Of a stretch of DNA of 64,000 bases, positions 4,101 to 64,000 are shown in pieces (position 1 is the first letter of the stretch; each line of letters begins with the position of its first letter). Below the pieces are notes generated by a model. That model was given only the letters and a program-made list of their open reading frames with translations, had not been told where the DNA came from and searched no databases. The DNA is from Eledone cirrhosa (lineage: Eukaryota), in assembly GCA_964016885.1 (NCBI GenBank), contig OZ024741.1:18104001-18168000 (forward strand), in the 5' to 3' direction. A program made the position numbers and the translations under genes.

Positions 4101-5999
4101 ATTATGTAATATATGTAAAGACTTGTGGCCGCAAGAGTCCTTACATACATATTATGTAATGTATGTAAGGACTTGTGGCCGCAAGTGTCCTTACATACAT
4201 ATTATGTAATGTATGTAAGGACATGTGGCCGCAAGATTCCTTACATACATATTACGTAATGTATGTAAGGACTTGTGGCCGCAAGTGTCCTTACATACAT
4301 ATTATGTAATGTATGTAAAGACTCTTGTGGCCGCAAGAGTCCTTACATACATATTATGTAATGTATGTAAGGACTTGTGGCCGCAAGTGTCCTTACATAC
4401 ATATTATGTAATGTATGTAAGGACTTGTGGCCGCAAGTGTCCTTACATACATATTATGTAATGTATGTAAGGGCTTGTGGCCACAAGAGTCCTTACATAC
4501 ATATTATGTAATGTATGTAAGGACTTGTGGCCGCAAGAGTCCTTACATACATATTAAGTAATGTATGTAAGGACTTGTGGCCGCAAGAGTCCTTACATAC
4601 ATATTATGTAATGTATGTAAGGACTTGTGGCCGCAAGAGTCCTTACATACATATTATGTAATGTATGTAAGGACTTGTGGCCGCAAGAGTCCTTACATAC
4701 ATATTATGTAATGTATGTAAGGACTTGTGGCCGCAAGAGTCCTTACATACATATTATGTAATGTATGTAAGGACTTGTGGCCGCAAGTGTCCTTACATAC
4801 ATATTATGTAATCTATGTAAGGACTTGTGGCCGCAAGATTCCTTACATACATATTATGTAATGTATGTAAGGACTTGTGGCCGCAAGTGTCCTTACATAC
4901 ATATTATGTAATGTATGTAAAGACTCTTGTGGCCGCAAGAGTCCTTACATACATATTATGTAATGTATGTAAGGACTTGTGGCTGCAAGTGTCCTTACAT
5001 ACATATTATGTAATGTATGTAAGGACTTGTGGCCGCAAGTGTCCTTACATACATATTATGTAATGTATGTAAGGACTTGTGGCCGCAAGAGTCCTTACAT
5101 ACATATTATGTAATGTATGTAAGGACTTGTGGCCGCAAGAGTCCTTACATACATATTAAGTAATGTATGTAAGGACTTGTGGCCGCAAGAGTCCTTACAT
5201 ACATATTATGTAATGTATGTAAGGACTTGTGGCCGCAAGAGTCCTTACATACATATTATGTAATGTATGTAAGGACTTGTGGCCGCAAGAGTCCTTACAT
5301 ACATATTATGTAATGTATGTAAGGACTTGTGGCCGCAAGAGTCCTTACATACATATTATGTAATGTATGTAAGGACTTGTGGCCGCAAGTGTCCTTACAT
5401 ACATATTATGTAATGTATGTAAGGACTTGTGGCCGCAATGTCCTTACATACATATTATGTAATGTATGGAAGTACTTGTGGCCGCAAGAGTCCTTACATA
5501 CATATTATGTAATGTATGGAAGTACTTGTGGCCGCAAGAGTCCTTACATACATATTATGTAATGTATGTAAGGACTTGTGGCCGCAAGAGTCCTTACATA
5601 CATATTATGTAATGTATGTAAGGACTTGTGGCCGCAAGAGTCCTTACATACGTATTATGTAATGCATGTAAGGACTTGTGGCCGCAAGAGTCCTTACATA
5701 CATATTATGTAATGTATGTAAGGACTTGTGGCCGCAAGAGTCCTTACATACATATTATGTAATGTGTGTAAGGACTTGTGGCCGCAAGAGTCCTTACATA
5801 CATGTTATGCAATGTATGTAAGGACTTGTGGCCGCAAGAGTCCTTACATACATGTTATGTAATGTATGTAAGGACTTGTGGCCGCAAGAGTCCTTACATA
5901 CATATTATGTAATGTATGTAAAGACTCTTGTGGCCGCAAGAGTCCTTACATACATATTATGTAATGTATGTAAAGACTCTTGTGGCCAATAAAATTATT
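1106..5999. repeat. ~97 x 50-bp double-palindromic minisatellite bounded by 21-bp perfect inverted repeats
   Basis: Unit cttgtggccgcaagwgtccttacatacatattatgtaatgtatgtaagga; ends aataattttattggccacaag (1106-1126) and cttgtggccaataaaattatt (5979-5999). Confidence 0.95.
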
Positions 6000-6570: not shown

Positions 6571-6571
6571 G

Positions 6572-6815
6572 GTAGAACACTGGAAGGTAATATCCGGAGT
6601 GGTAGAGCGCTCAGTCCATGGTACGAATTTGGTAGAAGTAGTAACACAACAGTTAGTTCACCACACCGAGAACAATTGTTTCACCTTATGCGGATCTTCA
6701 GCTGACTTGAATTTAGGCAATCGCTATTATAAAAGACTAGTCCGAGCTGAAGATTCGCATAAGGTGAAACAATTGTTCTCGGTATGGTGATCTAACTGTT
6801 GTGTTACTACTTCTA
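6572..6815. mobile_element. Fold-back HHR element, family B
   Basis: Inverted arms ~6633-6702 and ~6745-6815. Plus-strand HHR ccgag-CTGAAGA-...-GAAA-caattg-TT-ctcgg at 6742-6782, with a truncated mirror copy on minus. Same family at 62435-62565. Confidence 0.8.
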
Positions 6816-7039
6816 TATTATTCTATAGCGATTAGGTCTTCAAAATGTTTATTATAAACATACAGAATATTTTCGAATATTCTATGTCTATATTCACATA
6901 TATATCGCTATTTCAGAGCATTTATTCCAATTTCTAATTTCTGCCGGACCGGCAACCGCTCTTTCAAACCAGTTCCTGTACACAGCTAAGTATTCTATAA
7001 GTCTCTAGCTGTGTCATTCTCGATAAAAGCACTGGATAT

Positions 7040-7082
7040 GTAGTCCTGATGATTTCTAACAAGAATGAAACGCGTAGATTAC
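7040..7082 (+). ncRNA. Type I hammerhead ribozyme (copy 1)
   Basis: gtagtc-CTGATGA-t-ttct-aaca-agaa-t-GAAA-cgcg-TA-gattac; distal stem I attctcgataaaagca/tgcttttgtcgagaat (7016-7104). Confidence 0.9.
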
Positions 7083-7347
7083 TTCCCTTGCTTTTGTCGA
7101 GAATCTAATTGTAATACGTGACGTATTATTCTATAGCGATTAGGTCTTCAAAATGTTTATTATAAACATACAGAATATTTTCGAATATTCTATGTCTATA
7201 TTCACATATATATCGCTATTTCAGAGCATTTATTCCAATTTCTAATTTCTGCCGGACCGGCAACCGCTCTTTCAAACCAGTTCCTGTACACAGCTAAGTA
7301 TTCTATAAGTCTCTAGCTGTGTCATTCTCGATAAAAGCACTGGATAT

Positions 7348-7390
7348 GTAGTCCTGATGATTTCTAACAAGAATGAAACGCGTAGATTAC
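7348..7390 (+). ncRNA. Type I hammerhead ribozyme (copy 2)
   Basis: Same sequence as 7040-7082, shifted by 308. Confidence 0.9.
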
Positions 7391-7530
7391 TTCCCTTGCT
7401 TTTGTCGAGAATCTAATTGTAATACGTGACGTATTATTCTATAGCGATTAGGTCTTCAAAATGTTTATTATAAACATACAGAATATTTTCGAATATTCTA
7501 TGTCTATATTCACATATATATATATATATA

Positions 7531-13903: not shown

Positions 13904-14104
13904 TTTACTGTATGAATATTTTCTACTTAATGTATTAGGACAATATGAGAGGCTTATATTGACGCTAGAAATAGCAACCAAAATTGTCTAAATCAACTCA
14001 ATAATGATGTATACAATGATGGAGCAGTCAATATTAATTTATAACTCTATAAAGTTAACTGTCTCTAATACGTAAACATCTCAATGAAAGGAGAAGATAT
14101 ATTA

Positions 14105-14427: not shown

Positions 14428-14457
14428 GGTTGAGCACTCTACTGACTTATATTCATC

Positions 14458-16587
14458 ATGCAGAAACAACATCTGAATATTTTTACAAAGAACATACCCG
14501 TACCAAGCAGGAAAACATACCTAAAACTCCTGATACAGAAAACAGACGCGTTCATTAAAAGGTTGCGTTGGCGTGCCTTTTATTTCGATAATCCGCGAAA
14601 AGCAGACAACAAACAGGATAAATTTGGATTTAAAACCTATAATAACCCTCCGTGGAACCCAGCATTGCTACCCTTCGAAAATGATGTCTTGGAACTCATT
14701 CGGAGTATCAAATTTCGGAATAGGAGCAATTCCTTCCAGCAAGACCTGAAGAATAGAATTCGTTCTATTAAGGATTCTAACGCCGTGCATGTCCATTCCG
14801 ACAAAACTGGCAACCTATATCAAGTGGAGCGCAGTACTTACCATCAACTACTACATAATGCTGTAACTAAGGATTAGCATAAAACTAATCGGTGTGTCAT
14901 CAATGAAATCAACGATGCTGGGTTTAAAATCACATCTGATCTCAACATCCTGGATCGGACCGAACCTCTGGACCCTATCTCTCCCCACTTTAACCTGAAG
15001 GATCACAAATCCAATTTTCCGAACAACCCCTCTATTCGGCTTATTAACCCTACGAAGTCCGATTTAGGTAGACTTAGTAAAACGATTCTTGATAGAATTA
15101 TACCTGAAATTAGAAGTTTGGCCCCTCTCGCACTGTGGAACAATTCTTTCGCGGTGATTGATTGGTTCAACGGCATATGTAACAAGGAACATTGCCGTTT
15201 TACCCAATTCGACATCAACAATTACTACTCCTCCATGACTTTACCAATTCTCCTTAGAGCTATCAATTTCGCTAAAACACTCACAGTGATTAAGGATTTC
15301 GAAGTTGATGTCATCCTTAATGCCCGAAAGTCGGTGATTAATTTCGACGACTCTATTTGGATTAAAAAATCCAATAGTACTCCATTCGACGTGAGTATGG
15401 GCACCAGTGACTCTGCGGAGGTTACTGATCTTATTGGCCTTTTCCTTCTTTTCTCTATCAAGGACGAATTCCCCAACGCGGACGGTGGTTTGTACCGCGA
15501 CGATGGTCTTTTGACCATGACTAAGTGCGGACCTCGTGCTTGCGACAGGTTCAAAAAAGAACTCACAGCCTTCTTTAAAGGCTTCAACCTCTCTATACAG
15601 GTTGAGGCCAATCTCTCGGTCGTTAATTACCTCGACGTTACCCTCAATTTATTGAATGGGTTGTATTACCCGTATAGAAAGCCGAATGATACGCTTAATT
15701 ACATAAGTAAGCATTCCAACCATCCTGCCAGCATAACCAAGAACCTGGTAAAAAACGTTTCGTTGAGGCTTTCCCGTCTTTCCACCAACGAGCGCATTTT
15801 CAATGACCATTCCACTTATTACAATGAAGCTCTTGCTCGAAGTGGATTTGTCGATAAGGTAGCATATACAGAGTACGAAAATAGACCTAGAAGAAATAGA
15901 TCCCGTTGCATTTGATGGTTTAACCCACCATATAATATGGAGGTGGCCACACCATTAGCTAAGATCTTTCTTTCCCTTATTACGAAGCATTTTCCCCCTA
16001 CACATAAATATAGTAAAATTTTTAATAGAAATACTATTAAAATTTCTTACTCTACGACTCCTAACCTTGCACATAACATCACAGCTTCAAATTTAGCTAA
16101 ACTACCTAGCCGTAGGAACACGTGCAACCCTGTAGTTAGTACTAACTGTAATTGTAGGAATCGGGCTGATTGCCCCCTATCCGGGAAATGCCTCTCTAGT
16201 AACATTGTCTACAAATGTAAGGTTGTAACACCCACGTCCCGTAGGGCCTACATAGGGTTAACCGCCAATAGTTTCAAGCAGCGTCTTTACATGCATACCC
16301 ATTCTTTTCGTTACCCTCTAAGAAGGAATATGACATCACTTTCAGCTTATATCTGGAGTCTAAAAGACAACCACACCCAATATAAGTTACACTGGGAGAT
16401 CCTAGCTAGGGCTAGATCGTATAACGGAAATAAAAGACCATGTGACCTCTGCGCCGCTGAGGCCCTGGAAATACTCTACGCCACAGACCACATCTTAAAC
16501 AAAAAATCTGAGACAATTTCGGCTTGTAAACATAAATTGCACAAAACTTTCCTGTATTACAGCCCCACGTTATACCCTAACGGATAG
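14458..16587 (+). pseudogene. PLE reverse transcriptase-GIY-YIG endonuclease ORF (710 codons, 2 in-frame stops)
   Basis: ORFs 14458, 15118 and 15937 share one frame; TAG at 14875-77 and TGA at 15913-15. Motifs SDKTGN, FDINNYY, SMG, YRDDGL, NYLDVTL, IVYKC...YIGLT, CDLC. Confidence 0.92.
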
Positions 16588-19218: not shown

Positions 19219-19223
<5 letters not shown>

Positions 19224-19752
19224 CAAATAACGAAACGAAATTAAATTTCGTTTCGCTTGTAACTCACTTTTGTATGACTGACGCTTAAACAATTAAGTTA
19301 AAAATGTACATCTACATATGCATACTGAAATACTAGTGTGTATATGAATACACACACGTATACATATGTAGGTGTACCAAGTCTTTCACTGGTCGCTTTA
19401 CAGTGAGCGGCCCAGCTATTCTGTATGTAAACACACAGACAAACCGGTTTTTAGAGTCATACTGGTTTTCGGGGGAAACACCTTCCCTCTATTCTCCAGA
19501 AAGCCAGACAAGGAATATTGAACTAGTTTCGTTGTTGTTACAACTCATCAGCAATATTTACCTATCTACCGGCCTTTCTGGAGAATTGTAAAAGCACATA
19601 TCGTTATATGTGTGTTTACATACAGAATAGCTGGGCCGCTCACTGTAAAGCGACCAGTGAAAGACTTGGTACACCTACATATGTATACGTGTGTGTATTC
19701 ATATACACACTAGTATTTCAGTATGCATATGTAGATGTACATTTTTAACTTA

Positions 19753-19756
<4 letters not shown>
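19219..19756. mobile_element. Fold-back HHR element, family C, in (TA)n
   Basis: Inverted arms ~19289-19437 and ~19608-19756. Minus-strand HHR at 19514-19558: aatattg-CTGATGA-gttgt-aaca-acaac-GAAA-ctag-TT-caatatt. Confidence 0.85.
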
Positions 19757-19838
<82 letters not shown>

Positions 19839-20104
19839 CATATATGTATATACATATATATATACATACATATATATATACATATATATATACATATATA
19901 TAAATACACATATATATATATACATATATATATACATATTTATATATATACATATATATATATACACATACATATATACATATACTGTATATATATATAC
20001 ACACATATATATATATATACATATACATATATATATACATATACATATATATATACATACATATATATATATACATACATATATATATACATATATATAT
20101 ATAA

Positions 20105-20707
20105 TGGCGATAAATTAGTTTTGCGAGGTTTTTGATGTGAAATCGTGTGTCGAGACAAATATTGTTATACTTGGGGGAGGGTCATATTTATGTAATATTG
20201 CCATAATTAATAACAGAACACACTCACTGATTGGTTGGTTTTCGCTTCTGTGTCCTTTATATCGGTTAATTTAATTTATTCGGTCCTCAATGTTGCCATT
20301 GACTGGCCAACGGTCAAAAATACAGATACAACATAGACACAAACACATATATATAGTTTATCAAAGTTCTTTCGTTGCACATCTGCAACATCGTCAGTGG
20401 TGCTATTGTTTCCTCCCGTCGCATTGTATTTTCTACGCCATCTTTATTTAGTCTGTTTATATATTTATGTATTTGTTTATTTTATTTTGTCTTCTTTGCG
20501 CATGCGTTTGCGTGTGTGTATAATGTTTTGTTTGATGTGTGTTCGTGATTGGGTGACTGTGTATTGGCAACATTGAGGACCGAATAAATTAAATTACCGA
20601 TATAAAAGACACACAAGCGAAAAGCGAAAACCAACCAAACAGTGAGTGTGTTCTGTTATTAATTCTGGCAATAATACACAAATATGACCCTCCCCAAGTA
20701 TAACAAC
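20105..20707. mobile_element. Fold-back element with HHR-like motif in the spacer
   Basis: Imperfect arms 20163-20298 and 20565-20705. Minus strand CTGACGA-t-gttgca-gatg-tgcaac-GAAA-gaac-TT at ~20358-20403; weak stems I and III. Confidence 0.6.
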
Positions 20708-20738
<31 letters not shown>

Positions 20739-21181
20739 CATACACATATATATATATATACATATAATGGCTGCCCCCTCGTTATCGAGTATAGCCATTG
20801 CACGATATACCATTATTAATATACCATTATAGAAAACATATCGAAGAAATCAAAACACAGGGGAAATATAAGAAATATCAGGGTCATTTGGATAATACAA
20901 GGTTATACATATAGATATAGAGGATGGAAGAGATGGGATGGTATCAGGTGATACCTGGTGTATGTTCGAGTGTCAGAATTCAATGTAAAGGATAGAGAAT
21001 TCAGTCAATACAGTACACGTTATATTAGAATACGTAGAATTATTTAGAGGAATCAATGAGATCTGTCAGAGTCTGGATATGCCGATAGGGGAGTAGCGGT
21101 GGACTAGGTGGGCGGTAGACATAATTATAATATATATATATATATATAGTTAAAAGAATAGAGGTGTAACACACAAGTTAT

Positions 21182-22110
21182 TATATATTGGTAAACGGAA
21201 TAGAAAATGCTGACAAATTGTTCACAGTTGAAAAATGGTTTAATTAGGAATAAAAGAGTATTAGTGATTGTATGGGTTAGTATTCAGTTGTGGTTTTAAG
21301 TTTTTAAGTTTTTACCGGTTGCGCATTTCTAAATGCTTTTCAAAAATAATTTTGAGATAGAGTGTCCGTGCTGTTTGCTCTGATCTGATTAGTTTTGGGA
21401 ATTCTACCTGTTTTTATGTTAAAAAAGTGGCTCCAATTTGCAAAAATTCTTGTGGTCAAAACAATTTTGATTGGTCGGTAGAGGTGATGTGAATGTAAAA
21501 AATTGATTTTGCGCCAAGACTCTTTTTATGTTAAAAAAGTGGCTCCAGCAAAAATTCTTGTGGTCAAAACAATTTTGATTGGTCGGTAGAGGTCATGTGA
21601 ATAAAAAATTGGTTTTGCGCCAAGATTGAGAAATGACATATTTGTTGTGAAAGAGTCATTTCTCAATCTTGGCGCAAAACCAATTTTTTATTCACATGAC
21701 CTCTACCGACCAATCAAAATTGTTTTGACCACAAGAATTTTTGCTGGAGCCACTTTTTTAACATAAAAAGAGTCTTGGCGCAAAATCAACTTTTTACATT
21801 CACATCACCTCTACCGACCAATCAAAATTGTTTTGACCACAAGAATTTTTGCAAATTGGAGCCACTTTTTTAACATAAAAACAGGTAGAATTCCCAAAAC
21901 TAATCAGATCAGAGCAAACAGCACGGACACTCTATCTCAAAATTATTTTTGAAAAGCATTTAGAAATACGCAACCGGTAAAAACTTAAAAACTTAAAACC
22001 ACAACTGAATACTAACCCATACAATCACTAATACTCTTTTATTCCTAATTAAACCATTTTTCAACTGTGAACAATTTGTCAGCATTTTCTATTCCGTTTA
22101 CCAATATATA
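21182..22110. repeat. Near-perfect inverted repeat, ~456-bp arms, 17-nt loop
   Basis: Arms 21182-21637 and 21655-22110 with only a couple of mismatches; internal ~115-bp direct duplication in each arm; possible decayed HHR (ttgaaaa-gcatt..aatrc-gcaa-ccgg-ta). Confidence 0.9.
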
Positions 22111-24850: not shown

Positions 24851-25329
24851 AAGAGTATGCAGAAAAGTTCATAAGCTGATTAGGAAGAAGTGATGCTAGA
24901 GCTGTGAAATCTTGCTTGCAATAATTTCAAATCTTCTTATTAATAACTGCATTGCTTCTTTCCAGGGACTATATGGAAAAATAAACCTCATTTGGTTATT
25001 TCATGAAAGTATGTTGGTCAGCCTATGAAGGAGTGATGCTAGAGCTGTGAAATCTTGTATTCATTAATTTCAACTCTTCCTATAACTGCATTGTTTCTTT
25101 CCATGGACTATGTTGAAGTATAAACCCCATTTGGTCATTCAATAAGAGTATCTTGGTCAGCCTATCAAGAAGTGATGCTAGAGCTGTGAAATCATGCAGG
25201 CATTAATTTCAACTCTTCTTATTAATTACTTCATTGTTTCTCTCCAGGGACTATGTTGAAAAATAAACCTCATTTGGTCATTTCATGAGAGTATCTTGGT
25301 CAGCGTATGAACTGTTCAGCCCCTTTTCG
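24851..25329. mobile_element. Mariner-like MITE with ~135-bp internal tandem units
   Basis: Degenerate TIRs (gaaaagttcataagctga / tcagcgtatgaactgttc) and TA flanks; three gtgatgctagagctgtgaaatc units; second copy at 59520-60135. Confidence 0.65.
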
Positions 25330-27396: not shown

Positions 27397-29245
27397 ATAG
27401 ACACAGTGGTTATTGCCTCTGTGATAGAGAACCTAGACTGTAGCTGTCATTACCGGTTCTATAGACACAGTGGTTATTGCCTCTGTGATAGAGAACCTAG
27501 ACTGTAGCTGTCATTACCGGTTCTATAGACACAGTGGTTACTGCCTCTGTGATAGAGAACCTAGACTGTAGCTGTCATTACCGGTTCTATAGACACAGTG
27601 GTTATTGCCTCTGTGATAGAGAACCTAGACTGTAGCTGTCATTACCGGTTCTATAGACACAGTGGTTATTGCCTCTGTGATAGAGAACCTAGACTGTAGC
27701 TGTCATTACCGGTTCTATAGACACGGTGGTTATTGCCTCTGTGATAGAGAACCTAGACTGTAGCTGTCATTACCGGTTCTATAGACACGGTGGTTATTGC
27801 CTCCATGATAGAGAACCTAGACTGTAGCTGTCATTACCGGTTCTATAGACACGGTGGTTATTGCCTCTGTGATAGAGAACCTAGACTGTAGCTGTCATTA
27901 CCGGTTCTATAGACACGGTGGTTATTGCCTCTGTGATAGAGAAATTAGACTGTAGCTGTCATTACCGGTTCTATAGATACGGTGGTTATTGCCTCCGTGA
28001 TAGAGAACCTAGACTGTAGCTGTCATTACCGGTTCTATAGTCACGGTGGTTATTGCCTCCGTGATAGAGAACCTAGACTGTAGCTGTCATTACCGGTTCT
28101 ATAGACACGATGGTTATTGCCTCCGTGATAGAGAACCTAGACTGTAGCTGTCATTACCGGTTCTATAGTCACGGTGGTTATTGCCTCCATGATAGAGAAA
28201 TTAGACTGTAGCTGTCATTACCGGTTCTATAAACACGGTGGTTATTGCCTCCGTGATAGAGAAATTAGACTGTAGCTGTCATTACCGGTTCTATAGACAC
28301 GCTGTTTGTCTCAGTAATAGAGGATCGTGACTGTAGCTGTCATTACCGGTTCTATAGACACGCTGTTTGTCTCAGTAATAGAGGATGGTGACTGTGGCTG
28401 TCATTACCGGTTCTATAGACACGCTGTTTGTCTCTGTAATAGAGATCGTGACTGTAGCTATCATTACCGGTTCTATAGACACGCTGTTTGTCTCAGTAAT
28501 AGAGGATCGTGGCTGTAGCTGTCATTACCGGTTCTATAGACACGCTGTTTGTCTCTGTAATAGAGATCGTGACTGTAGCTATCATTACCGGTTCTATAGA
28601 CACGCTGTTTGTCTCAGTAATAGAGGATCGTGGCTGTAGCTGTCATTACCGGTTCTATAGACACGCTGTTTGTCTCTGTAATAGAGATCGTGACTGTAGC
28701 TATCATTACCGGTTCTATAGACACGCTGTTTGTCTCAGTAATAGAAGATGGTGACTGTGACTGTCATTACCGGTTCTATAGACACGCTGTTTGTCTCAGT
28801 AATAGAGGATGGTGACTGTGACTGTCATTACCGGTTCTATAGACACGCTGTTTGTCTCTGTAATAGAGGATGGTGACTGTGGCTGTCATTACCGGTTCTA
28901 CAGACACGCTGTTTGTCTCAGTAATAGAGGATCGTGGCTGTAGCTGTCATTACCGGTTCTATAGACACGCTGTTTGTCTCAGTAATAGAGGATGGTGACT
29001 GTGGCTGTCATTACCGGTTCTATAGACACGCTGTTTGTCTCTGTAATAGAGGATGGTGACTGTGACTGTCATTACCGGTTCTATAGACACGCTGTTTGTC
29101 TCAGTAATAGAGGATGGTGACTGTGGCTGTCATTACCGGTTCTATAGACACGCTGTTTGTCTCAGTAATAGAGGATGGTGACTGTGGCTGTCATTACCGG
29201 TTCTATAGACACGCTGTTTGTCTCAGTAATAGAGGATGGTGACTA
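27397..29245. repeat. Compound minisatellite: 14 x 64-bp, then ~15 x 60/61-bp
   Basis: Shared core gactgtagctgtcattaccggttctatagacac; the unit switches at ~28297. Confidence 0.95.
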
Positions 29246-44729: not shown

Positions 44730-45065
44730 ATAATATAAGATCAAAAGATGGTTAAAGGAGTTCCATGTATTTTATTATGCGCATTTCAAAAACAAACATC
44801 ATCATGCAATAATATTTGTGTTTTCATCAGATAAAACAGGAGAACATGATATGAAGGCTAAAAAACACTTGTGGATAGTGCAGTTTTAAATCAACATATG
44901 TTGATTTAAAACTGCACTATCCACAAGTGTTTTTTAGCCTTCATATCATGTTCTCCTGTTTTATCTGATGAAAACACAAATATTATTGCATGATGATGTT
45001 TGTTTTTGAAATGCGCATAATAAAATACATGGAACTCCTTTAACCATCTTTTGATCTTATATTAT
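44730..45065. mobile_element. Perfect 336-bp palindrome with one HHR per arm
   Basis: Centre 44897/44898. Plus HHR 44959-45025: ttttat-CTGATGA-long stem II-GAAA-tgcgca-TA-ataaaa. The right arm continues uniquely to ~45150. Confidence 0.9.
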
Positions 45066-45169
45066 GTATACTCCAGTCCTACAAACTGTAGAGTGCTTCT
45101 TATCCGATATCTGCATTGCTTTATTGTACTACAATAAAACTCACCTCCTACATATATATATATATATAT

Positions 45170-45355: not shown

Positions 45356-45408
<53 letters not shown>

Positions 45409-45469
45409 GAAGTATTTCCGTAGGAAAGGTAAAGGAAAAGAGAGTGCTCTATGTAGGCTACAGAGCTTT

Positions 45470-45656
45470 TTAGTTATGTAATAAACAACATAAGATAATT
45501 CATTTACCAGTGGTTTCTTGAAGACAGATGTTTATGTGTCTTCATTCATCAGAAAGAATAATATTATTCTTTCTGATGAATGAAAACAGACATAAACATC
45601 TGTCTTCAAGAAACCACTGGTAAATTAATTATCTTATGTTGTTTATTACATAACTA
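45470..45656. mobile_element. ~186-bp palindrome with one HHR per arm
   Basis: Centre 45562/45563. Plus: CTGATGA at 45573, tgaa..acaga/tctgt..ttca stem II, GAAA-ccactgg-TA. Confidence 0.8.
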
Positions 45657-47908: not shown

Positions 47909-49692
47909 GCAAAAGTTCTATTTAAATTGTTGGGATACAACAAGCAAATACTATTATAATTGATATAAAGCACTCGACAAATATTTGGAGTAGATATACA
48001 ATATTAATAAATGGAAACTATATTTATAAAACCATATTTATTTCATTATATATATTTCAAGGATACCAAGTTAAATCATGGTATGCCTTCATCAGACAAA
48101 ATACAATATATAACAGTTTTACAAATAGATATTGACGTACCCTTTCAAAAAGGTGACCGTTGTTTTGGGAGGCCATCCGGATAGTGGTTTGTTTACTTTA
48201 GTAAGTCATAGTGTTAAGAGTAAGTAAAAAGATGGAGAGATAGAGAAAAACGTGGAGAAAAAGAGAAAGGGAAAGATAGATAAAGAAAAAGAAGAAACCA
48301 AAAAGAAAAGAGAACAGAGGAAAAATAACGGGGAGATATCAAAACATCAGACAGAGAAAGAACTCAAGAGAGAGATATGTAGAGATAGAGAGAGTGGGGA
48401 GAGAACGAAACCTTAAGTTATGTCATATTAAGTTGAGTTAACAATTGAGATGAAATGAATAAATAAAATTAGAAATATTAATATTCGTGAATGGAATATA
48501 GATATATAATATGAGAAATTACACATTGTTTAATTATGATTATATATTTAGTTTAAAAATTGAGATCAATATATTAAAAATTGGAATTTAAACATTATAA
48601 AATATATATATTGCTAGAGAGATTATCTATCGTATATCACATATACATAGGCAAAGGTACATAAATATATATATATATACTCACTCACTAAAAAAATACA
48701 CATTATATCTACTCCCGCACATAATGTATACATACAAAGCATAAGTGATTTTTTTATTTATTGCTATACACTCCTTGTGTTATTAATTTAAAAATTTTAG
48801 TATATATATATATAAATATATAGGATTAACTTTTCTGCATTTATGGCTGTTAAATTATGCATATCTGCAATCAAAAGCTGCATGTGTAAGCCTGTACACT
48901 CACACCCATAATTCTTAACTATACATGAATAGATATGTGTGTGCATCTTCAATTGGTATACACGCGTCACTCATGCATATATACAGACAGATATATAATC
49001 ACAAAAAAAAAAACATATAACACATGTATATGTATGTCAACACGCACATATAGATACATAAGCCGTATATAGACACAAGTATACATCAATATATAACATA
49101 GTACAATTGAGTATATAAAATACAAAAGGATTATATTTTGGAAATATAATTATATCAATATAACTTAAAAGGCAAACGAATTCTACAAACATCAAAATAC
49201 TAAAATATCCCAAAATATTATAGAATATTTCAAGTTAAAATAATATGTTTAATATATTTAGCATAGAAATTTATCTTACGTATATTTTAATCAAGACATT
49301 GAAAGGACAAACTTTTGAAAATTATGAGAAGCTATCAGAATAAAAAATAAATTTAATACAAATTATGAGAAGCTATCAGAATAAAAACAAATCTAATAAA
49401 AAATAAAAAAATAAAATGAATCTAATACAAAAAATGAATCTAATAAAAAAATAAATAAAATGAATCTAAAAAAATTAAAATAAAATATGATAACTTAAAA
49501 AACAAGGATTCTACAGATATCAATATATTAAAAAATATTAAAAAATTTTAAAAAATTTAAAAAAATAAAAAATAAAAAATAAAAAATAAAAAATAAAAAA
49601 TAAAAAATAAAAAATAAAAAATAAAAAATAAAAAATAAAAAATAAAAAATAAAAAATAAAAAATAAAAAATAAAAAATAAAAAATAGAAATT

Positions 49693-49768
<76 letters not shown>

Positions 49769-50151
49769 AAAAAATAAAAAATAAAAAATAAAAAATAAAA
49801 AATAAAATTTTTTTTTTTAAATCCTTAAAAAATTCTTTAAAAAATTCTTTAAAAAATTCTTTAAAAAATTCAAAAAAATTTCAAAAAATCTCAAAAAATT
49901 TTTAAAATTTAAAAATATCATAGAATATTTTAAGCTAAAATAATATGTTTAGTATAGAAATTTATCTTACGTATATTTTTTTCAAGATATTGAAAGGATA
50001 AACTTTTCTAGAATAGTTTATTATATTTATAATTATATTTATGAAGACAATTTATACTTGGGTACTTAACCAAAGAAAATGAAAAAGGTGAAGGAATCTA
50101 ATGATTTATCGACAGGTTTCGTATATTAACTAAATTATTTAATTAATTAAA

Positions 50152-50410
50152 CTACATTTTAAATTTATATTTATATTTAAACGTTGAGTTCAATCTATGT
50201 CTGCAGCAACTGAATAAATTATTCCTTAAATTAAGGGAATTTTTGGTCTTTAATATAAAAAATATTTCCTCTATACAAAGATCACAATTTTCAGAAGAGG
50301 AATTAAAAGGAGTAGCTTTTGAAATAATATTCCAAATCAGCGAATATTCTACATTATCTCGTTTTAGGTCCCATAATAGGCTAGATAGCGAAGTTGAAGA
50401 TTTTCTAGAT
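50152..50410 (-). pseudogene. PLE GIY-YIG C-terminal part
   Basis: SSTSLSSLLWDLK...WNII...CDLCIEE...LNLR...CCRH, homologous to the end of ORF 15937-16587. Confidence 0.88.
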
Positions 50411-51207
50411 GTAACACTAAATCTAAACACATGTCTTCATTATCCATTTCACAAACTAAATGAGAACTTAAATTATGTCAATTTTAACTCTAATTACCCC
50501 AGATCCGTTAAAAATACTATAGTGAACTCGGTTCAAGAACGAATTTCAAGAATTTCATCTAATAAGAATATATTTGATGAAAAAGCGCATTATTACAACG
50601 AAGCGTTAGGTAGAGCTGGGTATAGAAATAAAATTAAATACATCGATAATAATAATAATATACAAAATAACCAAAATAATAACTTTAATTATGGTAACAA
50701 TTTCAACAACTATAATAGAAAATATTACAATAACTCCGAAAGCCGAAAAAGAAATAGAACTAGGAATATATTATGGTTCGCTCCTCCTTTCTCACTAAAT
50801 ATTAAAACCCCTATTGCTAAACTATTCTTTAAATCTCTTGACAAACGATTCCCTAGAACACATAAATATTACTCAATTTTTAATAGACATACTATAAAAT
50901 TAACTTACTCTTCCACCAAAAATTTAGCGCAAAATATTAATAGAATTAATAATAGAAATTTAAAACCTAACCAAAATACCAATAATAACCCAAGCAATAT
51001 TCAATCGAATAACTGTAACTGTAGAAATAAATCAAACTGTCCGTTAAATAACAACTGCTTAGCTAAAAGTGTAGTTTATAATTGTAATGTTAAAACTAAT
51101 TTAAATTCATTTAACTATGTCGGTTCTACCTCTACAGAATTTAAATCCCGCTTCAATAATCATAAAAATTCTTTTACAGATCTAAGCAAAAAATCTTCAA
51201 CTTCGCT
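50398..51207 (+). pseudogene. PLE RT thumb, linker and GIY-YIG N-terminal part
   Basis: FLDVTLNL...SNYP...WFAPPF...CNCRNKSNCPLNNNC...VVYNC...YVGST...KKSSTS. Confidence 0.9.
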
Positions 51208-52853
51208 TTTTTTATTTTTTATTTTTTATTTTTTATTTTTTATTTTTTATTTTTTATTTTTTATTTTTTATTTTTATTTTTATTTTTTATTTATTATTTT
51301 TTATTTTTTAAAATTTTTTTAAATTTTTTAATATTTTTTTAATATATTGATATCTGTAGAATCCTTGTTTTTTAAGTTATAATATTTTATTTTTATTTTT
51401 TTATTAGATTCATTTTATTTATTTTTTTATTAGATTCATTTTTTGTATTAGATTCATTTTATTTTTTATTTTTTATTAGATTTGTTTTTATTCTGATAGC
51501 TTCTCATAATTTGTATTAGATTTATTTTTTATTCTGATAGTTTCTCATAATTTTCAAAAGTTTGTCCTTTCAATGTCTTGATTAAAATATACGTAAGATA
51601 AATTTCTATGCTAAATATATTAAACATATTATTTTAACTTGAAATATTTTAGGATATTTTAGTATTTTGATGTTTGTAGAATTCGTTTGCCTTTTAAGTT
51701 ATATTGATATAATTATATTTCCAAAATATAATCCTTTTGTATTTTATATACTCAATTGTACTGTTATATATTGATGTATACTTGTGTCTATATACGGCTT
51801 ATGTATCTATATGTGCGTGTTGACATACATATACATGTGTTATATGTTTTTTTTGTGATTATATATCTGTCTGTATATATGCATGAGTGACGCGTGTATA
51901 CCAATTGAAGATGCACACACATATCTATTCATGTATAGTTAAGAATTATGGGTGTGAGTGTACAGGCTTACACATGCAGCTTTTGATTGGAGATATGCAT
52001 AATTTAACAGCCATAAATGCAGAAAAGTTAATCCTATATATTTATATATATATATACTAAAATTTTTAAATTAATAACACAAGGAGTGTATAGCAATAAA
52101 TAAAAAAATCACTTATGCTTTGTATGTATACATTATGTGCGGGAGTAGATATAATGTGTATTTTTTTAGTGAGTGAGTATATATATATATATTTATGTAC
52201 CTTTGCCTATGTATATGTGATATACGATAGATAATCTCTCTAGCAATATATATATTTTATAATGTTTAAATTCCAATTTTTAATATATTGATCTCAATTT
52301 TTAAACTAAATATATAATCATAATTAAACAATGTGTAATTTCTCATATTATATATCTATATTCCATTCACGAATATTAATATTTCTAATTTTATTTATTC
52401 ATTTCATCTCAATTGTTAACTCAACTTAATATGACATAACTTAAGGTTTCGTTCTCTCCCCCACTCTCTCTATCTCTACATATCTCTCTCTGAGTTCTTT
52501 CTCTGTCTGATGTTTTGATATCTCCCCGTTATTTTTCCTCTGTTCTCTTTTCTTTTTGCTTTCTTCTTTTTCTTTATCTATCTTTCCCTTTCTCTTTTTC
52601 TCCACGTTTTTCTCTATCTCTCCATCTTTTACTTACTCTTAACACTATGACTTACTAAAGTAAACAAACCACTATCCGGATGGCCTCCCAAAACAACGGT
52701 CACCTTTTTGAAAGGGTACGTCAATATCTATTTGTAAAACTGTTATATATTGTATTTTGTCTGATGAAGGCATACCATGATTTAACTTGGTATCCTTGAA
52801 ATATATATAATGAAATAAATATGGTTTTATAAATATAGTTTCCATTTATTAAT

Positions 52854-52859
<6 letters not shown>

Positions 52860-52904
<45 letters not shown>

Positions 52905-52960
52905 ATATATATATATATATATATCCATATATATATATATATCCATATATATATATATAT

Positions 52961-53046
<86 letters not shown>

Positions 53047-53100
53047 ATATATATATATATATATCCATATATATATATATATCCATATATATATATATAT

Positions 53101-53196
<96 letters not shown>

Positions 53197-53238
53197 ATAT
53201 ATATATATATATATCCATATATATATATATATATATAT
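52860..53238. repeat. (TA)n interrupted by CC, left flank of the array
   Basis: atatcc variant; continues in the same orientation at 57889-58630. Confidence 0.95.
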
Positions 53239-56200
53239 ATAAATTGAAACAAAATGAAAACGAAATTTCATTTCTCACTCTTAGTATGGCACTTACTTAA
53301 ATGTAAGTATGCATGTATACGTACATACATATATGTATACAGACGTACAGTAGCATGCACATATATATATATATATACATATATACATACATATGCATAC
53401 AGGTACACATACATATATGCACGTATCAGTTTAGCGGCGCTAACGTCGCTTTGTTCGTTTGTAAACAAACTGAACAGCCTGAATTTATGCCATACGGTGT
53501 TAAGGCAACCACGTCACCTTTTTGTTCAACACTGACACAGGAACGATGTACTAGTTTCAAGCTTGTTAGCTATCATCAGCACCGTTTACCCATCTGCCAG
53601 ATAGTTGAACGTTCGAAAGTATATACTTTCCTTATGAAAATTAACGGCTGAGCAGCCTAATTTGCATATTGAGTGAGTTAAATCGGTCAGGCATACCGAA
53701 AACGATAAATTGAAACAAAATGAAAACGAAATTTCATTTCTCACTCTTAGTATGGCACTTACTTAAATGTAAGTATGCATGTATACGTACATACATATAT
53801 GTATACAGACGTACAGTAGCATGCACATATATATATATATATACATATATACATACATATGCATACAGGTACACATACATATATGCACGTATCAGTTTAG
53901 CGGCGCTAACGTCGCTTTGTTCGTTTGTAAACAAACTGAACAGCCTGAATTTATGCCATACGGTGTTAAGGCAACCACGTCACCTTTTTGTTCAACACTG
54001 ACACAGGAACGATGTACTAGTTTCAAGCTTGTTAGCTATCATCAGCACCGTTTACCCATCTGCCAGATAGTTGAACGTTCGAAAGTATATACTTTCCTTA
54101 TGAAAATTAACGGCTGAGCAGCCTAATTTGCATATTGAGTGAGTTAAATCGGTCAGGCATACCGAAAACGATAAATTGAAACAAAATGAAAACGAAATTT
54201 CATTTCTCACTCTTAGTATGGCACTTACTTAAATGTAAGTATGCATGTATACGTACATACATATATGTATACAGACGTACAGTAGCATGCACATATATAT
54301 ATATATATACATATATACATACATATGCATACAGGTACACATACATATATGCACGTATCAGTTTAGCGGCGCTAACGTCGCTTTGTTCGTTTGTAAACAA
54401 ACTGAACAGCCTGAATTTATGCCATACGGTGTTAAGGCAACCACGTCACCTTTTTGTTCAACACTGACACAGGAACGATGTACTAGTTTCAAGCTTGTTA
54501 GCTATCATCAGCACCGTTTACCCATCTGCCAGATAGTTGAACGTTCGAAAGTATATACTTTCCTTATGAAAATTAACGGCTGAGCAGCCTAATTTGCATA
54601 TTGAGTGAGTTAAATCGGTCAGGCATACCGAAAACGATAAATTGAAACAAAATGAAAACGAAATTTCATTTCTCACTCTTAGTATGGCACTTACTTAAAT
54701 GTAAGTATGCATGTATACGTACATACATATATGTATACAGACGTACAGTAGCATGCACATATATATATATATATACATATATACATACATATGCATACAG
54801 GTACACATACATATATGCACGTATCAGTTTAGCGGCGCTAACGTCGCTTTGTTCGTTTGTAAACAAACTGAACAGCCTGAATTTATGCCATACGGTGTTA
54901 AGGCAACCACGTCACCTTTTTGTTCAACACTGACACAGGAACGATGTACTAGTTTCAAGCTTGTTAGCTATCATCAGCACCGTTTACCCATCTGCCAGAT
55001 AGTTGAACGTTCGAAAGTATATACTTTCCTTATGAAAATTAACGGCTGAGCAGCCTAATTTGCATATTGAGTGAGTTAAATCGGTCAGGCATACCGAAAA
55101 CGATAAATTGAAACAAAATGAAAACGAAATTTCATTTCTCACTCTTAGTATGGCACTTACTTAAATGTAAGTATGCATGTATACGTACATACATATATGT
55201 ATACAGACGTACAGTAGCATGCACATATATATATATATATACATATATACATACATATGCATACAGGTACACATACATATATGCACGTATCAGTTTAGCG
55301 GCGCTAACGTCGCTTTGTTCGTTTGTAAACAAACTGAACAGCCTGAATTTATGCCATACGGTGTTAAGGCAACCACGTCACCTTTTTGTTCAACACTGAC
55401 ACAGGAACGATGTACTAGTTTCAAGCTTGTTAGCTATCATCAGCACCGTTTACCCATCTGCCAGATAGTTGAACGTTCGAAAGTATATACTTTCCTTATG
55501 AAAATTAACGGCTGAGCAGCCTAATTTGCATATTGAGTGAGTTAAATCGGTCAGGCATACCGAAAACGATAAATTGAAACAAAATGAAAACGAAATTTCA
55601 TTTCTCACTCTTAGTATGGCACTTACTTAAATGTAAGTATGCATGTATACGTACATACATATATGTATACAGACGTACAGTAGCATGCACATATATATAT
55701 ATATATACATATATACATACATATGCATACAGGTACACATACATATATGCACGTATCAGTTTAGCGGCGCTAACGTCGCTTTGTTCGTTTGTAAACAAAC
55801 TGAACAGCCTGAATTTATGCCATACGGTGTTAAGGCAACCACGTCACCTTTTTGTTCAACACTGACACAGGAACGATGTACTAGTTTCAAGCTTGTTAGC
55901 TATCATCAGCACCGTTTACCCATCTGCCAGATAGTTGAACGTTCGAAAGTATATACTTTCCTTATGAAAATTAACGGCTGAGCAGCCTAATTTGCATATT
56001 GAGTGAGTTAAATCGGTCAGGCATACCGAAAACGATAAATTGAAACAAAATGAAAACGAAATTTCATTTCTCACTCTTAGTATGGCACTTACTTAAATGC
56101 CTGACCGATTTAACTCACTCAATATGCAAATTAGGCTGCTCAGCCGTTAATTTTCATAAGGAAAGTATATACTTTCGAACGTTCAACTATCTGGCAGATG

Positions 56201-57888
56201 GGTAAACGGTGCTGATGATAGCTAACAAGCTTGAAACTAGTACATCGTTCCTGTGTCAGTGTTGAACAAAAAGGTGACGTGGTTGCCTTAACACCGTATG
56301 GCATAAATTCAGGCTGTTCAGTTTGTTTACAAACGAACAAAGCGACGTTAGCGCCGCTAAACTGATACGTGCATATATGTATGTGTACCTGTATGCATAT
56401 GTATGTATATATGTATATATATATATATATGTGCATGCTACTGTACGTCTGTATACATATATGTATGTACGTATACATGCATACTTACATTTAAGTAAGT
56501 GCCATACTAAGAGTGAGAAATGAAATTTCGTTTTCATTTTGTTTCAATTTATCGTTTTCGGTATGCCTGACCGATTTAACTCACTCAATATGCAAATTAG
56601 GCTGCTCAGCCGTTAATTTTCATAAGGAAAGTATATACTTTCGAACGTTCAACTATCTGGCAGATGGGTAAACGGTGCTGATGATAGCTAACAAGCTTGA
56701 AACTAGTACATCGTTCCTGTGTCAGTGTTGAACAAAAAGGTGACGTGGTTGCCTTAACACCGTATGGCATAAATTCAGGCTGTTCAGTTTGTTTACAAAC
56801 GAACAAAGCGACGTTAGCGCCGCTAAACTGATACGTGCATATATGTATGTGTACCTGTATGCATATGTATGTATATATGTATATATATATATATATGTGC
56901 ATGCTACTGTACGTCTGTATACATATATGTATGTACGTATACATGCATACTTACATTTAAGTAAGTGCCATACTAAGAGTGAGAAATGAAATTTCGTTTT
57001 CATTTTGTTTCAATTTATCGTTTTCGGTATGCCTGACCGATTTAACTCACTCAATATGCAAATTAGGCTGCTCAGCCGTTAATTTTCATAAGGAAAGTAT
57101 ATACTTTCGAACGTTCAACTATCTGGCAGATGGGTAAACGGTGCTGATGATAGCTAACAAGCTTGAAACTAGTACATCGTTCCTGTGTCAGTGTTGAACA
57201 AAAAGGTGACGTGGTTGCCTTAACACCGTATGGCATAAATTCAGGCTGTTCAGTTTGTTTACAAACGAACAAAGCGACGTTAGCGCCGCTAAACTGATAC
57301 GTGCATATATGTATGTGTACCTGTATGCATATGTATGTATATATGTATATATATATATATATGTGCATGCTACTGTACGTCTGTATACATATATGTATGT
57401 ACGTATACATGCATACTTACATTTAAGTAAGTGCCATACTAAGAGTGAGAAATGAAATTTCGTTTTCATTTTGTTTCAATTTATCGTTTTCGGTATGCCT
57501 GACCGATTTAACTCACTCAATATGCAAATTAGGCTGCTCAGCCGTTAATTTTCATAAGGAAAGTATATACTTTCGAACGTTCAACTATCTGGCAGATGGG
57601 TAAACGGTGCTGATGATAGCTAACAAGCTTGAAACTAGTACATCGTTCCTGTGTCAGTGTTGAACAAAAAGGTGACGTGGTTGCCTTAACACCGTATGGC
57701 ATAAATTCAGGCTGTTCAGTTTGTTTACAAACGAACAAAGCGACGTTAGCGCCGCTAAACTGATACGTGCATATATGTATGTGTACCTGTATGCATATGT
57801 ATGTATATATGTATATATATATATATATGTGCATGCTACTGTACGTCTGTATACATATATGTATGTACGTATACATGCATACTTACAT
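53239..57888. mobile_element. ~10 x 466-bp HHR-containing tandem array (retrozyme-like) with internal inversion
   Basis: Units at 53241+466n up to 56099, inverted block 56097-57888. HHRs on minus at 53542-53586 (+466n, six copies) and on plus at 56205-56249 (+466n, four copies). Confidence 0.93.
56205..56249 (+). ncRNA. Type I hammerhead ribozyme (representative of 10 copies)
   Basis: aacggtg-CTGATGA-t-agct-aaca-agct-t-GAAA-ctag-TA-catcgtt; distal stem I gttcaac..ctggca/tgtcag..gttgaac. Confidence 0.92.
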
Positions 57889-57904
57889 ATATATATATAT
57901 ATAT

Positions 57905-57974
<70 letters not shown>

Positions 57975-58156
57975 ATATATATATATCCATATATATATAT
58001 ATATATCCATATATATATATATATATATATCCATATATATATATCCATATATATATATATATCCATATATATATCCATATATATATATATATATCCATAT
58101 ATATATATATATCCATATATATATATATCCATATATATATATATATGGATATATAT

Positions 58157-58220
<64 letters not shown>

Positions 58221-58274
58221 ATATATATATATATATATCCATATATATATCCATATATATATATATATATATAT

Positions 58275-58372
<98 letters not shown>

Positions 58373-58428
58373 ATATATATATATATATATATATATATAT
58401 CCATATATATATATATATATATATATAT

Positions 58429-58474
<46 letters not shown>

Positions 58475-58528
58475 ATATATATATATATATATCCATATAT
58501 ATATATATATCCATATATATATATATAT

Positions 58529-58610
<82 letters not shown>

Positions 58611-58630
58611 ATATATATATATATATATAT
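57889..58630. repeat. (TA)n interrupted by CC, right flank of the array
   Basis: Same atatcc variant as 52860-53238. Confidence 0.95.
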
Positions 58631-58811
58631 AGATAGCACGTGTCTGATACGCTGAGAGGCAGTGTTAGGGATTTCTGACACATTAGTCAAACATGTCCTC
58701 CTGTGATATAGGACTATAGTAAAAGAGAAGAGAAAGACATGTAAGGTACATGGTTGAAATAAAAATAGGTTTTGTAGTTGGTAGATTATAGTGGCAGTAA
58801 CAGGTGTTTAG

Positions 58812-59519: not shown

Positions 59520-60135
59520 TGCGAATATCGACTGTAAAGTTCATATCCTGACCAAGATACTCTCATTGAATGACCAAATGAGGTTTATTTTTCAACATAG
59601 TCTCTGGAAAGAAACAATGAAGTTATTAATAAGAAGAACTGAAATTAATGCAAACAAGATTTCACAGCCCTAGCATCATTCCTTCATAGGCTTCCCACGA
59701 TACTCTCATGGAATGACCAAATGAGGTTTATTTTTCAATATAGTCCCTGGAAAGTAACAATGCAGTTATTAGTAAGAAGAATTGAAATTAAAGTAAACAA
59801 GATTTCACAGCTCTAGCATTATCCCTTCATAGTCTGACCAGGATACGCTCATGGAATGACCAAATGAAGTTTATTTTTCAGATTAGTCCCTGGAAAAAAT
59901 AAACAAATTACTTACTAATAAGAAGAGTTGAAATAAATGCAGGCAAGATTTCACGGCTCTAGCATCACTCCTTCATAGTCAGCCTATGAACTTTTCAGAC
60001 TTGCATTAATTTCACCTCTTCTTATTAATAACTTCATTGTTTCTTTCCAGAGACTATGTTGAAAAATAAACCCATTTGGTCATTCCATGAGAATATCTTG
60101 GTTAACATTTGAACTTTTCATCCGACCATTTTATA
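59520..60135. mobile_element. Mariner-like MITE, second copy, rearranged
   Basis: Reverse ~135-bp units (gatttcacagctctagcatca) and TIR-like tcagcctatgaacttttca. Confidence 0.6.
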
Positions 60136-62709: not shown

Positions 62710-63009
62710 TGGATAGCTAGATATTAATAGCTAGATATTAATAGCTAAATAACTAGATAGATAGATTGATAGATTTAGGAAAGTCTTAACCTTTCGAACG
62801 ACAATCTTTCATAGGAAGATAGAATGAGAAAGAGAGGGAGAGGGGCAGAGGGAGGGGGAGGGGTGGGGTGGATAGGAATTCAAACAAGAGTAAGAAAGGG
62901 AAGAAAACGCGAAAAGGTTAAACAGGAGAACAGAACGTGTTGTACTTAGCCATATATATAATATTATATATATATGCATGTGTGTTGTGTGTGTGTGAGT
63001 ATGTATGTG

Positions 63010-63185
63010 TATTACTGGTACTTCATTTTATCGACCTCCTAAGGATGAAAGGCAAAGTTAACCTCGGAGTTCAAATCCCGCTGAGGTTAACTTTGCCTTT
63101 CATCCTTACGGGGTCGATAAAACAAAGTACCAGTAATACGCTGGGTAATTGCTGGCCTTGTGCCAAAAGTAGAAACAATTATATT
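63010..63185. mobile_element. Two SINE fragments joined head-to-head
   Basis: Reverse core at 63010-63068 joined to a forward B-box-to-tail copy. Confidence 0.75.
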
Positions 63186-63665: not shown

Positions 63666-63747
<82 letters not shown>

Positions 63748-63752
<5 letters not shown>

Positions 63753-64000
63753 CAAATAACGAAACGAAATTTAATTTCGTTTCGTTATTTGTTTTTATCG
63801 TCTCCGCTGAACCGGTACGTACTCACGCTCTATGCAAATTGGTCTGCCCACTACTAATTTTCATAGAAAAAGCATATAACGATATGTGCTTTTACGATTC
63901 TCTAGAAAGGCCGGAAGATAGGTAAATATTGCTGATGAGATGTAACAACATCGAAACTAGTCCAATATTCCTGTCTGGCTTTCTAGAGAATAGAGGAAAG
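63748..64000 (+). mobile_element. Family C element with HHR at 63925-63969, running off the window
   Basis: aatattg-CTGATGA-gatgt-aaca-acatc-GAAA-ctag-TC-caatatt; starts with a short fold-back at the (TA)n junction. Confidence 0.88.

Follow-up and report, generated by a model that had tools for sequence, protein, structure and literature searches.

The window analyzed here is a 64,000-nt stretch of Eledone cirrhosa DNA (contig OZ024741.1, positions 18,104,001 to 18,168,000). Within an (AT)n tract at 53239–57888, it carries a tandem array of a 466-nt unit. The ten copies show no differences among themselves and form two back-to-back blocks of opposite orientation, which raises the question of how one part of a perfectly repeated array came to be inverted relative to the rest. 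The parts are listed below, with phases of the unit numbered from 53239 (phase 1).

52858–53238, no strand: left target flank, (AT)n with CC interruptions
53239–56099, minus strand: left block (first cDNA), 6 full 466-nt units plus 65 nt, RNA-3′ end at 53239
53239–53303, minus strand: tail between start sites A and B, 61–65 nt, with a hairpin conserved in a related family (19220–19289)
56097–56099, no strand: inner head-to-head junction, where the two cDNA 3′ ends share a 3-nt microhomology (ATG/CAT)
56097–57888, plus strand: inverted block (second cDNA), 3 units plus 394 nt, phase 456 to 63
56205–56249, plus strand: minimal type I hammerhead, example copy, predicted cut after 56242
57889–58632, no strand: right target flank, (AT)n interrupted by CC in the same polarity as on the left

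The left block follows the 466-nt period without deviation from its first letter (phase 1) to its last (phase 65; final letters ...CTTAAATG), and the inverted block fits it from 56097 (phase 456) to 57888 (phase 63, ...CTTACAT). The ATG of phases 63–65 is common to both blocks at the inner junction and recurs as CAT at 57886–57888. Flipping 56097–57888 in silico yields an unbroken periodic array of 4650 nt. Three further splits (56098–57887, 56099–57886 and 56100–57885) also restore the array, so the register is exact only to within 0–3 nt. The inverted arms are perfect over 1795 nt and are separated by a 72-nt spacer (56025–56096); the window contains no N letters. These data bear out three claims of the first-pass annotation, namely that the left block, ending at 56099, is continued by the far end of the inverted block at 57888, that the blocks share a 3-nt ATG, and that the outer end of the inverted block passes into (AT)n, here the CC-interrupted tract that begins at 57889. 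Assuming that the stop of the first cDNA is uniform over the unit, the chance of its falling in phases 62–65 is 4/466, or 0.9%.

The flanks indicate what was turned around. TCCAT/ATGGA counts are 12/0 on the left and 26/1 on the right; since the CC interruptions run the same way on both sides, the inversion is confined to the insert. Beside the array lie runs of 25 and 19 nt, and in an (AT)n target such as this a target-site duplication is unreadable. The left flank (52858–53238) also contains, twice over, a block of ~140 nt with the run lengths 16, 16, 30, 50–60 and 18.

The unit itself is 466 nt long and 36% GC. It has no credible ORF (the longest open frame, 114 codons stop-to-stop, is largely TA repeat) and is arranged head-to-tail. 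A motif scan found a minimal type I hammerhead motif in each unit, with the core and stems I and II present in 10/10; the cores lie on the minus strand in the left block (53579...55909) and on the plus strand in the inverted block (56212, 56678, 57144 and 57610). The example copy comprises a 7-bp stem I, CUGAUGA, a 4-bp stem II, GAAA and a palindromic 6-nt stem III region. A U·U pair closes stem II of the array hammerhead, and minimum-energy folds of the unit lack the catalytic hammerhead fold. In an Rfam search at E ≤ 1, the hammerhead was absent among the 150 matches listed of 240; every listed match, to TA-rich microRNA models or to one pestivirus stem-loop model, fell below gathering scores and was set aside as low complexity. 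Our hammerhead call is therefore based on the motif scan and on two related copies, at 19551 and 63932, that keep the core despite changes in the stems. The predicted unit RNA is highly self-paired (z −7.8), in part owing to a TA-rich hairpin.

By size, GC content, lack of an ORF and tandem layout, the unit fits a non-LTR retrozyme with a predicted hammerhead. Judging from the available text of PMC7229834 and 10.64898/2026.07.22.740005, non-LTR retrozymes likewise consist of non-coding units repeated in tandem, each carrying a type I hammerhead, and are low in GC, self-paired as predicted RNA, present in very high copy number and accompanied by PLEs. The array unit lies just above the 150–450 bp range given there, and its hammerhead is minimal, in contrast to the canonical motif. 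The unit family is very abundant in the best-matching sample (4163 and 4910 contigs from two runs). No RNA runs with the unit were found among the matches listed, and exact-pattern scans found no related loci in metagenome contigs or genome contigs. Words of the unit also occur in runs labeled as many different organisms (X1–X20; 13 rows at half or more). One such run, X4, holds a single 470-nt contig of depth 7 with the uninverted unit only, identical to the window in the aligned parts. For X1–X20, trace carry-over of an abundant repeat seems likelier than transfer between hosts.

Other repeats occur elsewhere in the window. Another retrozyme-like array, of 2.3 identical copies of a 308-nt unit, lies at 6816–7513; it ends in (AT)n and has hammerhead cores at 7046 and 7354, again with a U·U pair closing stem II. 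Tandem arrays at 1117–5987, 27413–29244, 24884–25311 and 59540–59978 (50-, 64- and 143-nt units) gave no hammerhead core by motif scan. A palindrome of a dispersed SINE-like repeat lies at 63009–63139, with further copies at 14097, 39445, 45835 and 46565.

When the hammerhead strand is taken as RNA sense, both outer ends of the array are RNA-3′ ends, each lying in (AT)n, and the inner junction joins two 5′-side ends; hence the blocks are head-to-head. This polarity is the outcome of priming by both target strands, with the two cDNA 3′ ends complementary through ATG/CAT. Hammerhead cleavage was rejected as the cause of the block ends, as no block ends at the predicted cut. The two RNA-3′ ends differ in phase: that of the left block, at 53239, marks start site A (tail-plus), while that of the inverted block, at 57885–57888, marks start site B (tail-minus). 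The whole insert thus measures 10 units minus 10 nt, and the second cDNA stops 10 nt before site A, counted modulo 466.

To put this asymmetry in context, we considered inverted inserts found by self-comparison of the window and by reading. Seven with (AT)n on both sides were picked by eye, a selection that was not blind, and in 7/7 one arm is longer at the outer end. The extra arm measures 61 nt in the array, 90 nt in the adjacent PLE, 70 nt at 19220–19756, 57 nt at 20104–20707, 40 nt at 21149–22103, 89 nt at 44733–45151 and 67 nt at 45406–45654, each with a few nucleotides of uncertainty. Five of the seven contain a hammerhead-like core, and all five are head-to-head. Omitted from the seven were an older inverted insert at 6571–6815 (extra arm ~62 nt), which abuts the 308-nt array, and the scan rows 5829, 49904, 59533 and 63009, which lack (AT)n on both sides. 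An arm asymmetry of 40–90 nt is the PLE 'tail', described for inverted PLE insertions in the available text of PMC8557442 and PMC3846280. In PMC11167929, purified PLE cleaves and extends both strands and prefers AT-rich DNA; a dimeric form is predicted for the protein, whose two RT start sites are separated by the tail sequence.

Is the second start point fixed or free? One insert of the window bears directly on this question.

19220–19756, no strand: related retrozyme insert, head-to-head, 260/419 aligned columns identical to the array unit, 70-nt tail

The tail aligns with that of this related family at a score reached by 0/2000 shuffles, and the inverted block of the insert starts at the point homologous to phase 63. 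In the array, site B falls in a short unpaired stretch (phases 59–64) at the base of a long predicted hairpin. As many as 110/466 phases begin with AT or TA. The second start point looks like a fixed tail-minus site rather than a free one, a fixedness that for the array's family rests on one homologous insert. The first block of 19220–19756 ends ~145 nt short of the next B, as gauged from a second copy at 63745. Because this insert starts at B yet is ~145 nt out of register, B appears to be used whether or not the first cDNA gets there. The copy at 63745–64000, the third related retrozyme copy, begins at site A after (AT)n and extends past the window; it reverses orientation within ~25–36 nt, at the tail hairpin itself. 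Elsewhere, 44733–45151 and 45406–45654 are short spacer-less perfect palindromes with hammerhead-like cores and tails of 89 and 67 nt; either could have arisen by fold-back, or from two cDNAs that both ended at the same template 5′ end.

The element immediately to the left of the array has a related but more complicated anatomy.

47909–50404, minus strand: PLE left block, endonuclease-region C-terminus, 3′ UTR, hammerhead core at 48095, 82–90 nt tail
50405–51207, plus strand: PLE inverted ORF piece, RT end to GIY-YIG region
51208–52857, plus strand: PLE second 3′ UTR copy, hammerhead core at 52761, tail-minus end in (AT)n

On the basis of Atlas matches, domain order and hammerhead, this element is an EN+ PLE, with RT followed by a C-terminal GIY-YIG. 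The Atlas matches for its pieces score 0.94–0.95, with HTH_animal and GIY-YIG (12–18% of members), and a Pfam scan found an RT or GIY-YIG family in 0/4 PLE pieces. Naiad was ruled out by the C-terminal endonuclease and hammerhead core. The pieces are colinear with an element at 14446–16587, and the left block and the inverted ORF piece align to adjoining parts of its PLE-like ORF at 15916–16584. The element at 14446–16587 is an almost complete PLE-like ORF, with RT, CxC linker and C-terminal endonuclease, that is interrupted by two stop codons; it adjoins (CA)n and has no hammerhead core by motif scan. To the left of the adjacent PLE, the (AT)n interruptions are CTG, not CC.

At its far end, the inverted ORF piece continues the left block in register, apart from an 18-nt duplication (50387–50404 / 51190–51207). 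Since this piece is absent from the left block, it must have been copied from RNA by the second strand. It runs, however, into the second 3′ UTR copy (51208–52857) and not into (AT)n; the two 3′ UTR copies differ by 7 substitutions and 8 gaps in 1537 columns. In the simplest reading, the second cDNA would start at B, switch at a T-rich tract to the stop point of the first cDNA, and continue from there. The earlier suggestion that the PLE has the geometry of the array thus survives for the tail, the polarity and the register of the ORF piece (with its 18-nt overlap), but not for the join to the second 3′ UTR, which would require a template switch. A single event giving rise to both PLE and array was rejected, as the two are separated by 380 nt of target and only the PLE has arms that differ from each other. 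Comparison of the 466-nt unit with two PLE 3′ regions gave no significant sequence match; the best score, tail versus PLE 3′ UTR, was reached by 1/200 shuffles in one of 20 comparisons and at a non-equivalent position. The proposed mechanistic link between the two was therefore right in kind but wrong in detail. Tail and polarity suggest that the same kind of machinery produced both, and this particular PLE is only a putative mobilizer of the array.

If site B is a preferred breakpoint, other junctions of the family should gather around it. We aligned contigs of the two best-matching runs, both from one sample that may itself be the source of the window, to 56025–56525, which covers phases 457–65 forward and 456 downward inverted; the window's own inner junction is collinear with this reference. 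Subfamily variants are visible in these contigs, for example at 56152/56154, where they make up about half of the depth. Of 19 joints, 16 are visible, and 12 of these lead out of the forward part into the inverted one and hence represent other head-to-head junctions. Of the other four, one is the ordinary continuation, two are deletions and one is a junction of unreadable polarity. Ten of the 12 head-to-head joints end at phases 47–65, that is, from 15 nt short of B to 3 nt past it (P = 6 × 10−4 against a uniform 56-position range, with biased detection), and the partner ends of these ten are scattered over phases 188–434. Several caveats apply to these counts: the sides of the joints are only 20–30 nt, extra letters occur in 8/12, only phases 10–65 are visible, the family is more variable, or less conserved, below phase 25, which could skew the cluster, and outer ends are masked in the reference. 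We dropped an argument for polarity bias from the absence of opposite-strand or 'goes back' joints, since skip joints list sides of 20–30 nt and opposite-strand joints only those of at least 33 nt. The joints near B resemble the short deletions of L1 twin priming in the available text of 10.1101/2024.08.27.596794. The expectation that in-register breakpoints recur elsewhere agrees with the 10/12 contig joints near B and runs counter to the insert at 19220–19756.

Taken together, the array is probably one insertion of a non-LTR retrozyme RNA, made by a PLE-type enzyme, with both target strands primed at two fixed sites on a multimer or circle. A PLE RT-endonuclease would nick both strands of the (AT)n target. 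Going by the anatomy and by published PLE biochemistry, priming by the top strand would then take place at one fixed site, A (phase 1), and priming by the bottom strand at another, B (phases 63–66), with the tail between them. Each cDNA, being longer than one unit in the array as it stands, would come from a multimer or from a circle copied repeatedly. The first cDNA would be halted at a B, by the second primer or enzyme or by the hairpin base, creating the register, and the two cDNA 3′ ends would be joined through the ATG/CAT visible at the junction. Because each block exceeds one unit, the template must have been longer than a unit, or circular, even if local expansion followed. With B serving as both start site and preferred stop, the register becomes a by-product rather than a free match. 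Nor does it prove a single template molecule, because B recurs in every unit and the hairpin there could stall the first cDNA. This modifies the initial proposal of twin priming on one multimeric or circular template. Priming by both strands on a multimer or circle agrees with the head-to-head blocks, with RNA-3′ ends that both lie in (AT)n, with the microhomology of 3 nt and with the whole units on each side; a free second point and a single molecule do not follow, given that B is a recurring fixed site, used also by 19220–19756. Two-fixed-site priming does not account for the six B sites passed by the first cDNA before it stopped, and the ~145-nt offset of 19220–19756 and the palindromes at 44733–45151 and 45406–45654, which fit fold-back better, count against it.

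A more specific form is possible, although we hold it only tentatively: two-primer rolling-circle reverse transcription of a circular retrozyme RNA, with a PLE dimer seated at A and B and several rounds from each. That each cDNA ends about where the other was primed favors a circle, but this is a single observation with a chance of a few percent.

In a different scheme, which we regard as unlikely, a single TPRT event suffices. The 3′ ATG of the first cDNA would anneal to a CAT 72 nt behind it and self-prime a backward copy; cleaved or halted at a B, this copy would then be linked to the other target end. The inverted block is indeed identical to, and fully contained in, the left block; two inserts of the window are spacer-less palindromes; and the available text of PMC3846280 explains head-to-head Penelope palindromes by self-priming (our comparisons on this point also drew on the available text of 10.1101/2024.12.14.628481). 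However, the end of the first cDNA and the point of resolution must both hit B independently, and PLE extends both target strands in vitro (PMC11167929). Moreover, self-priming cannot produce the inverted ORF piece of the PLE, which its left block lacks.

Twin priming as in L1, with the second strand annealing at a free internal AT-complementary point and blocking the first cDNA there, seems still more doubtful. It would explain the exact register and the microhomology, as the primer end pairs with CAU at phases 63–65, and the ORF-internal register of the PLE, where the 18-nt duplication is close to the internal duplications of L1 (median 22 bp, in the text available for L1). With 110/466 phases offering AT or TA, though, the point used is the one homologous to that of the related family, and the resulting tail falls within the 40–90 nt range of other inserts.

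An assembly or read artefact, be it a strand switch in a perfect repeat or a wrong copy number, has very little probability in our judgment. Identical units, 1795-nt perfect arms and palindromic flanks are structures of the kind that trouble assemblies (available text of PMC8557442), and no contig piece bridges 56097–56099 among the 18 pieces listed (9151 others). Against this, the window has no gaps marked by N, a fold-back within a read would not stop at the homologous B point, and junctions of the same type appear in raw-data contigs, 3/12 of them in both runs. The unit counts, 6 and 3, are the least certain part of the array. Finally, one end of a direct array could have been turned around later by a balanced inversion through ATG/CAT inverted microhomology. 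Such an inversion would also be exact in register and reversible to the array, but it is highly improbable, as it needs one break within 3 nt of the array end and another on site B, no mutation has accumulated, and tail-to-tail joints number 0/16 visible (of 19), albeit a type perhaps harder to detect.

How does the array compare with known systems? With EN+ PLE insertions, as given in the available text of PMC8557442, PMC3846280 and PMC11167929 (an inverted 5′-truncated copy plus an optional tail), it shares head-to-head inversion, a tail on one outer end and an AT-rich target; those insertions likewise have a (TA)n target, both strands primed and two RT start sites. It departs from them in its tail (61–65 nt versus 30–40 in these papers) and in its cargo, a non-coding multimer with whole units in both blocks; the same text yielded nothing on a register of the first-cDNA stop with the second start. 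L1 twin priming, in the sources available, similarly involves two target strands and two cDNAs joined by microcomplementarity, with breakpoints that keep the register or come close to it (deletions in 66%, with a median of 14.5 bp, and duplications in 17%, with a median of 22 bp; accessible text of 10.1101/2024.08.27.596794), and the array shows both the continuation of the direct block by the inverted one and the inner-junction microhomology. Unlike L1, as described there, the array has no poly(A), a cis-element, not chance complementarity, appears to set its second priming point, and its periodic template leaves the register ambiguous modulo 466. Inverted arrays, tails and twin priming are absent from the searched text of PMC7229834 and 10.64898/2026.07.22.740005, the latter giving 0 hits in the searched text for 'inversion' and 0 for 'twin'. 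Retrozymes, tailed inverted PLE copies and twin priming are each known; their combination was not found in the literature searched. Nor did we find a report of PLE-type inverted, tailed retrozyme arrays or of their register, in a search confined largely to open-access main text.

These observations bear on two questions that earlier work leaves standing. In the accessible text, how PLEs make tandem and inverted insertions is called open (PMC8557442); retrozyme arrays are attributed to tandem cDNA of circular RNA (PMC7229834); and 10.64898/2026.07.22.740005 leaves mobilization open, leaning on local amplification after insertion. If an inversion that arose on insertion has whole identical units on either side, the tandem would already have been present in the cDNA, and the PLE tail-plus and tail-minus ends would point to a PLE-type enzyme as the maker of the array. 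If the rolling-circle form of the mechanism is true, register at B would be the rule for PLE-type inverted insertions, and the tail would be the stretch that the first RT copies before meeting the second primer. With thousands of variant contigs in the best-matching sample, end phases can be counted genome-wide, which would provide a direct test of both questions.
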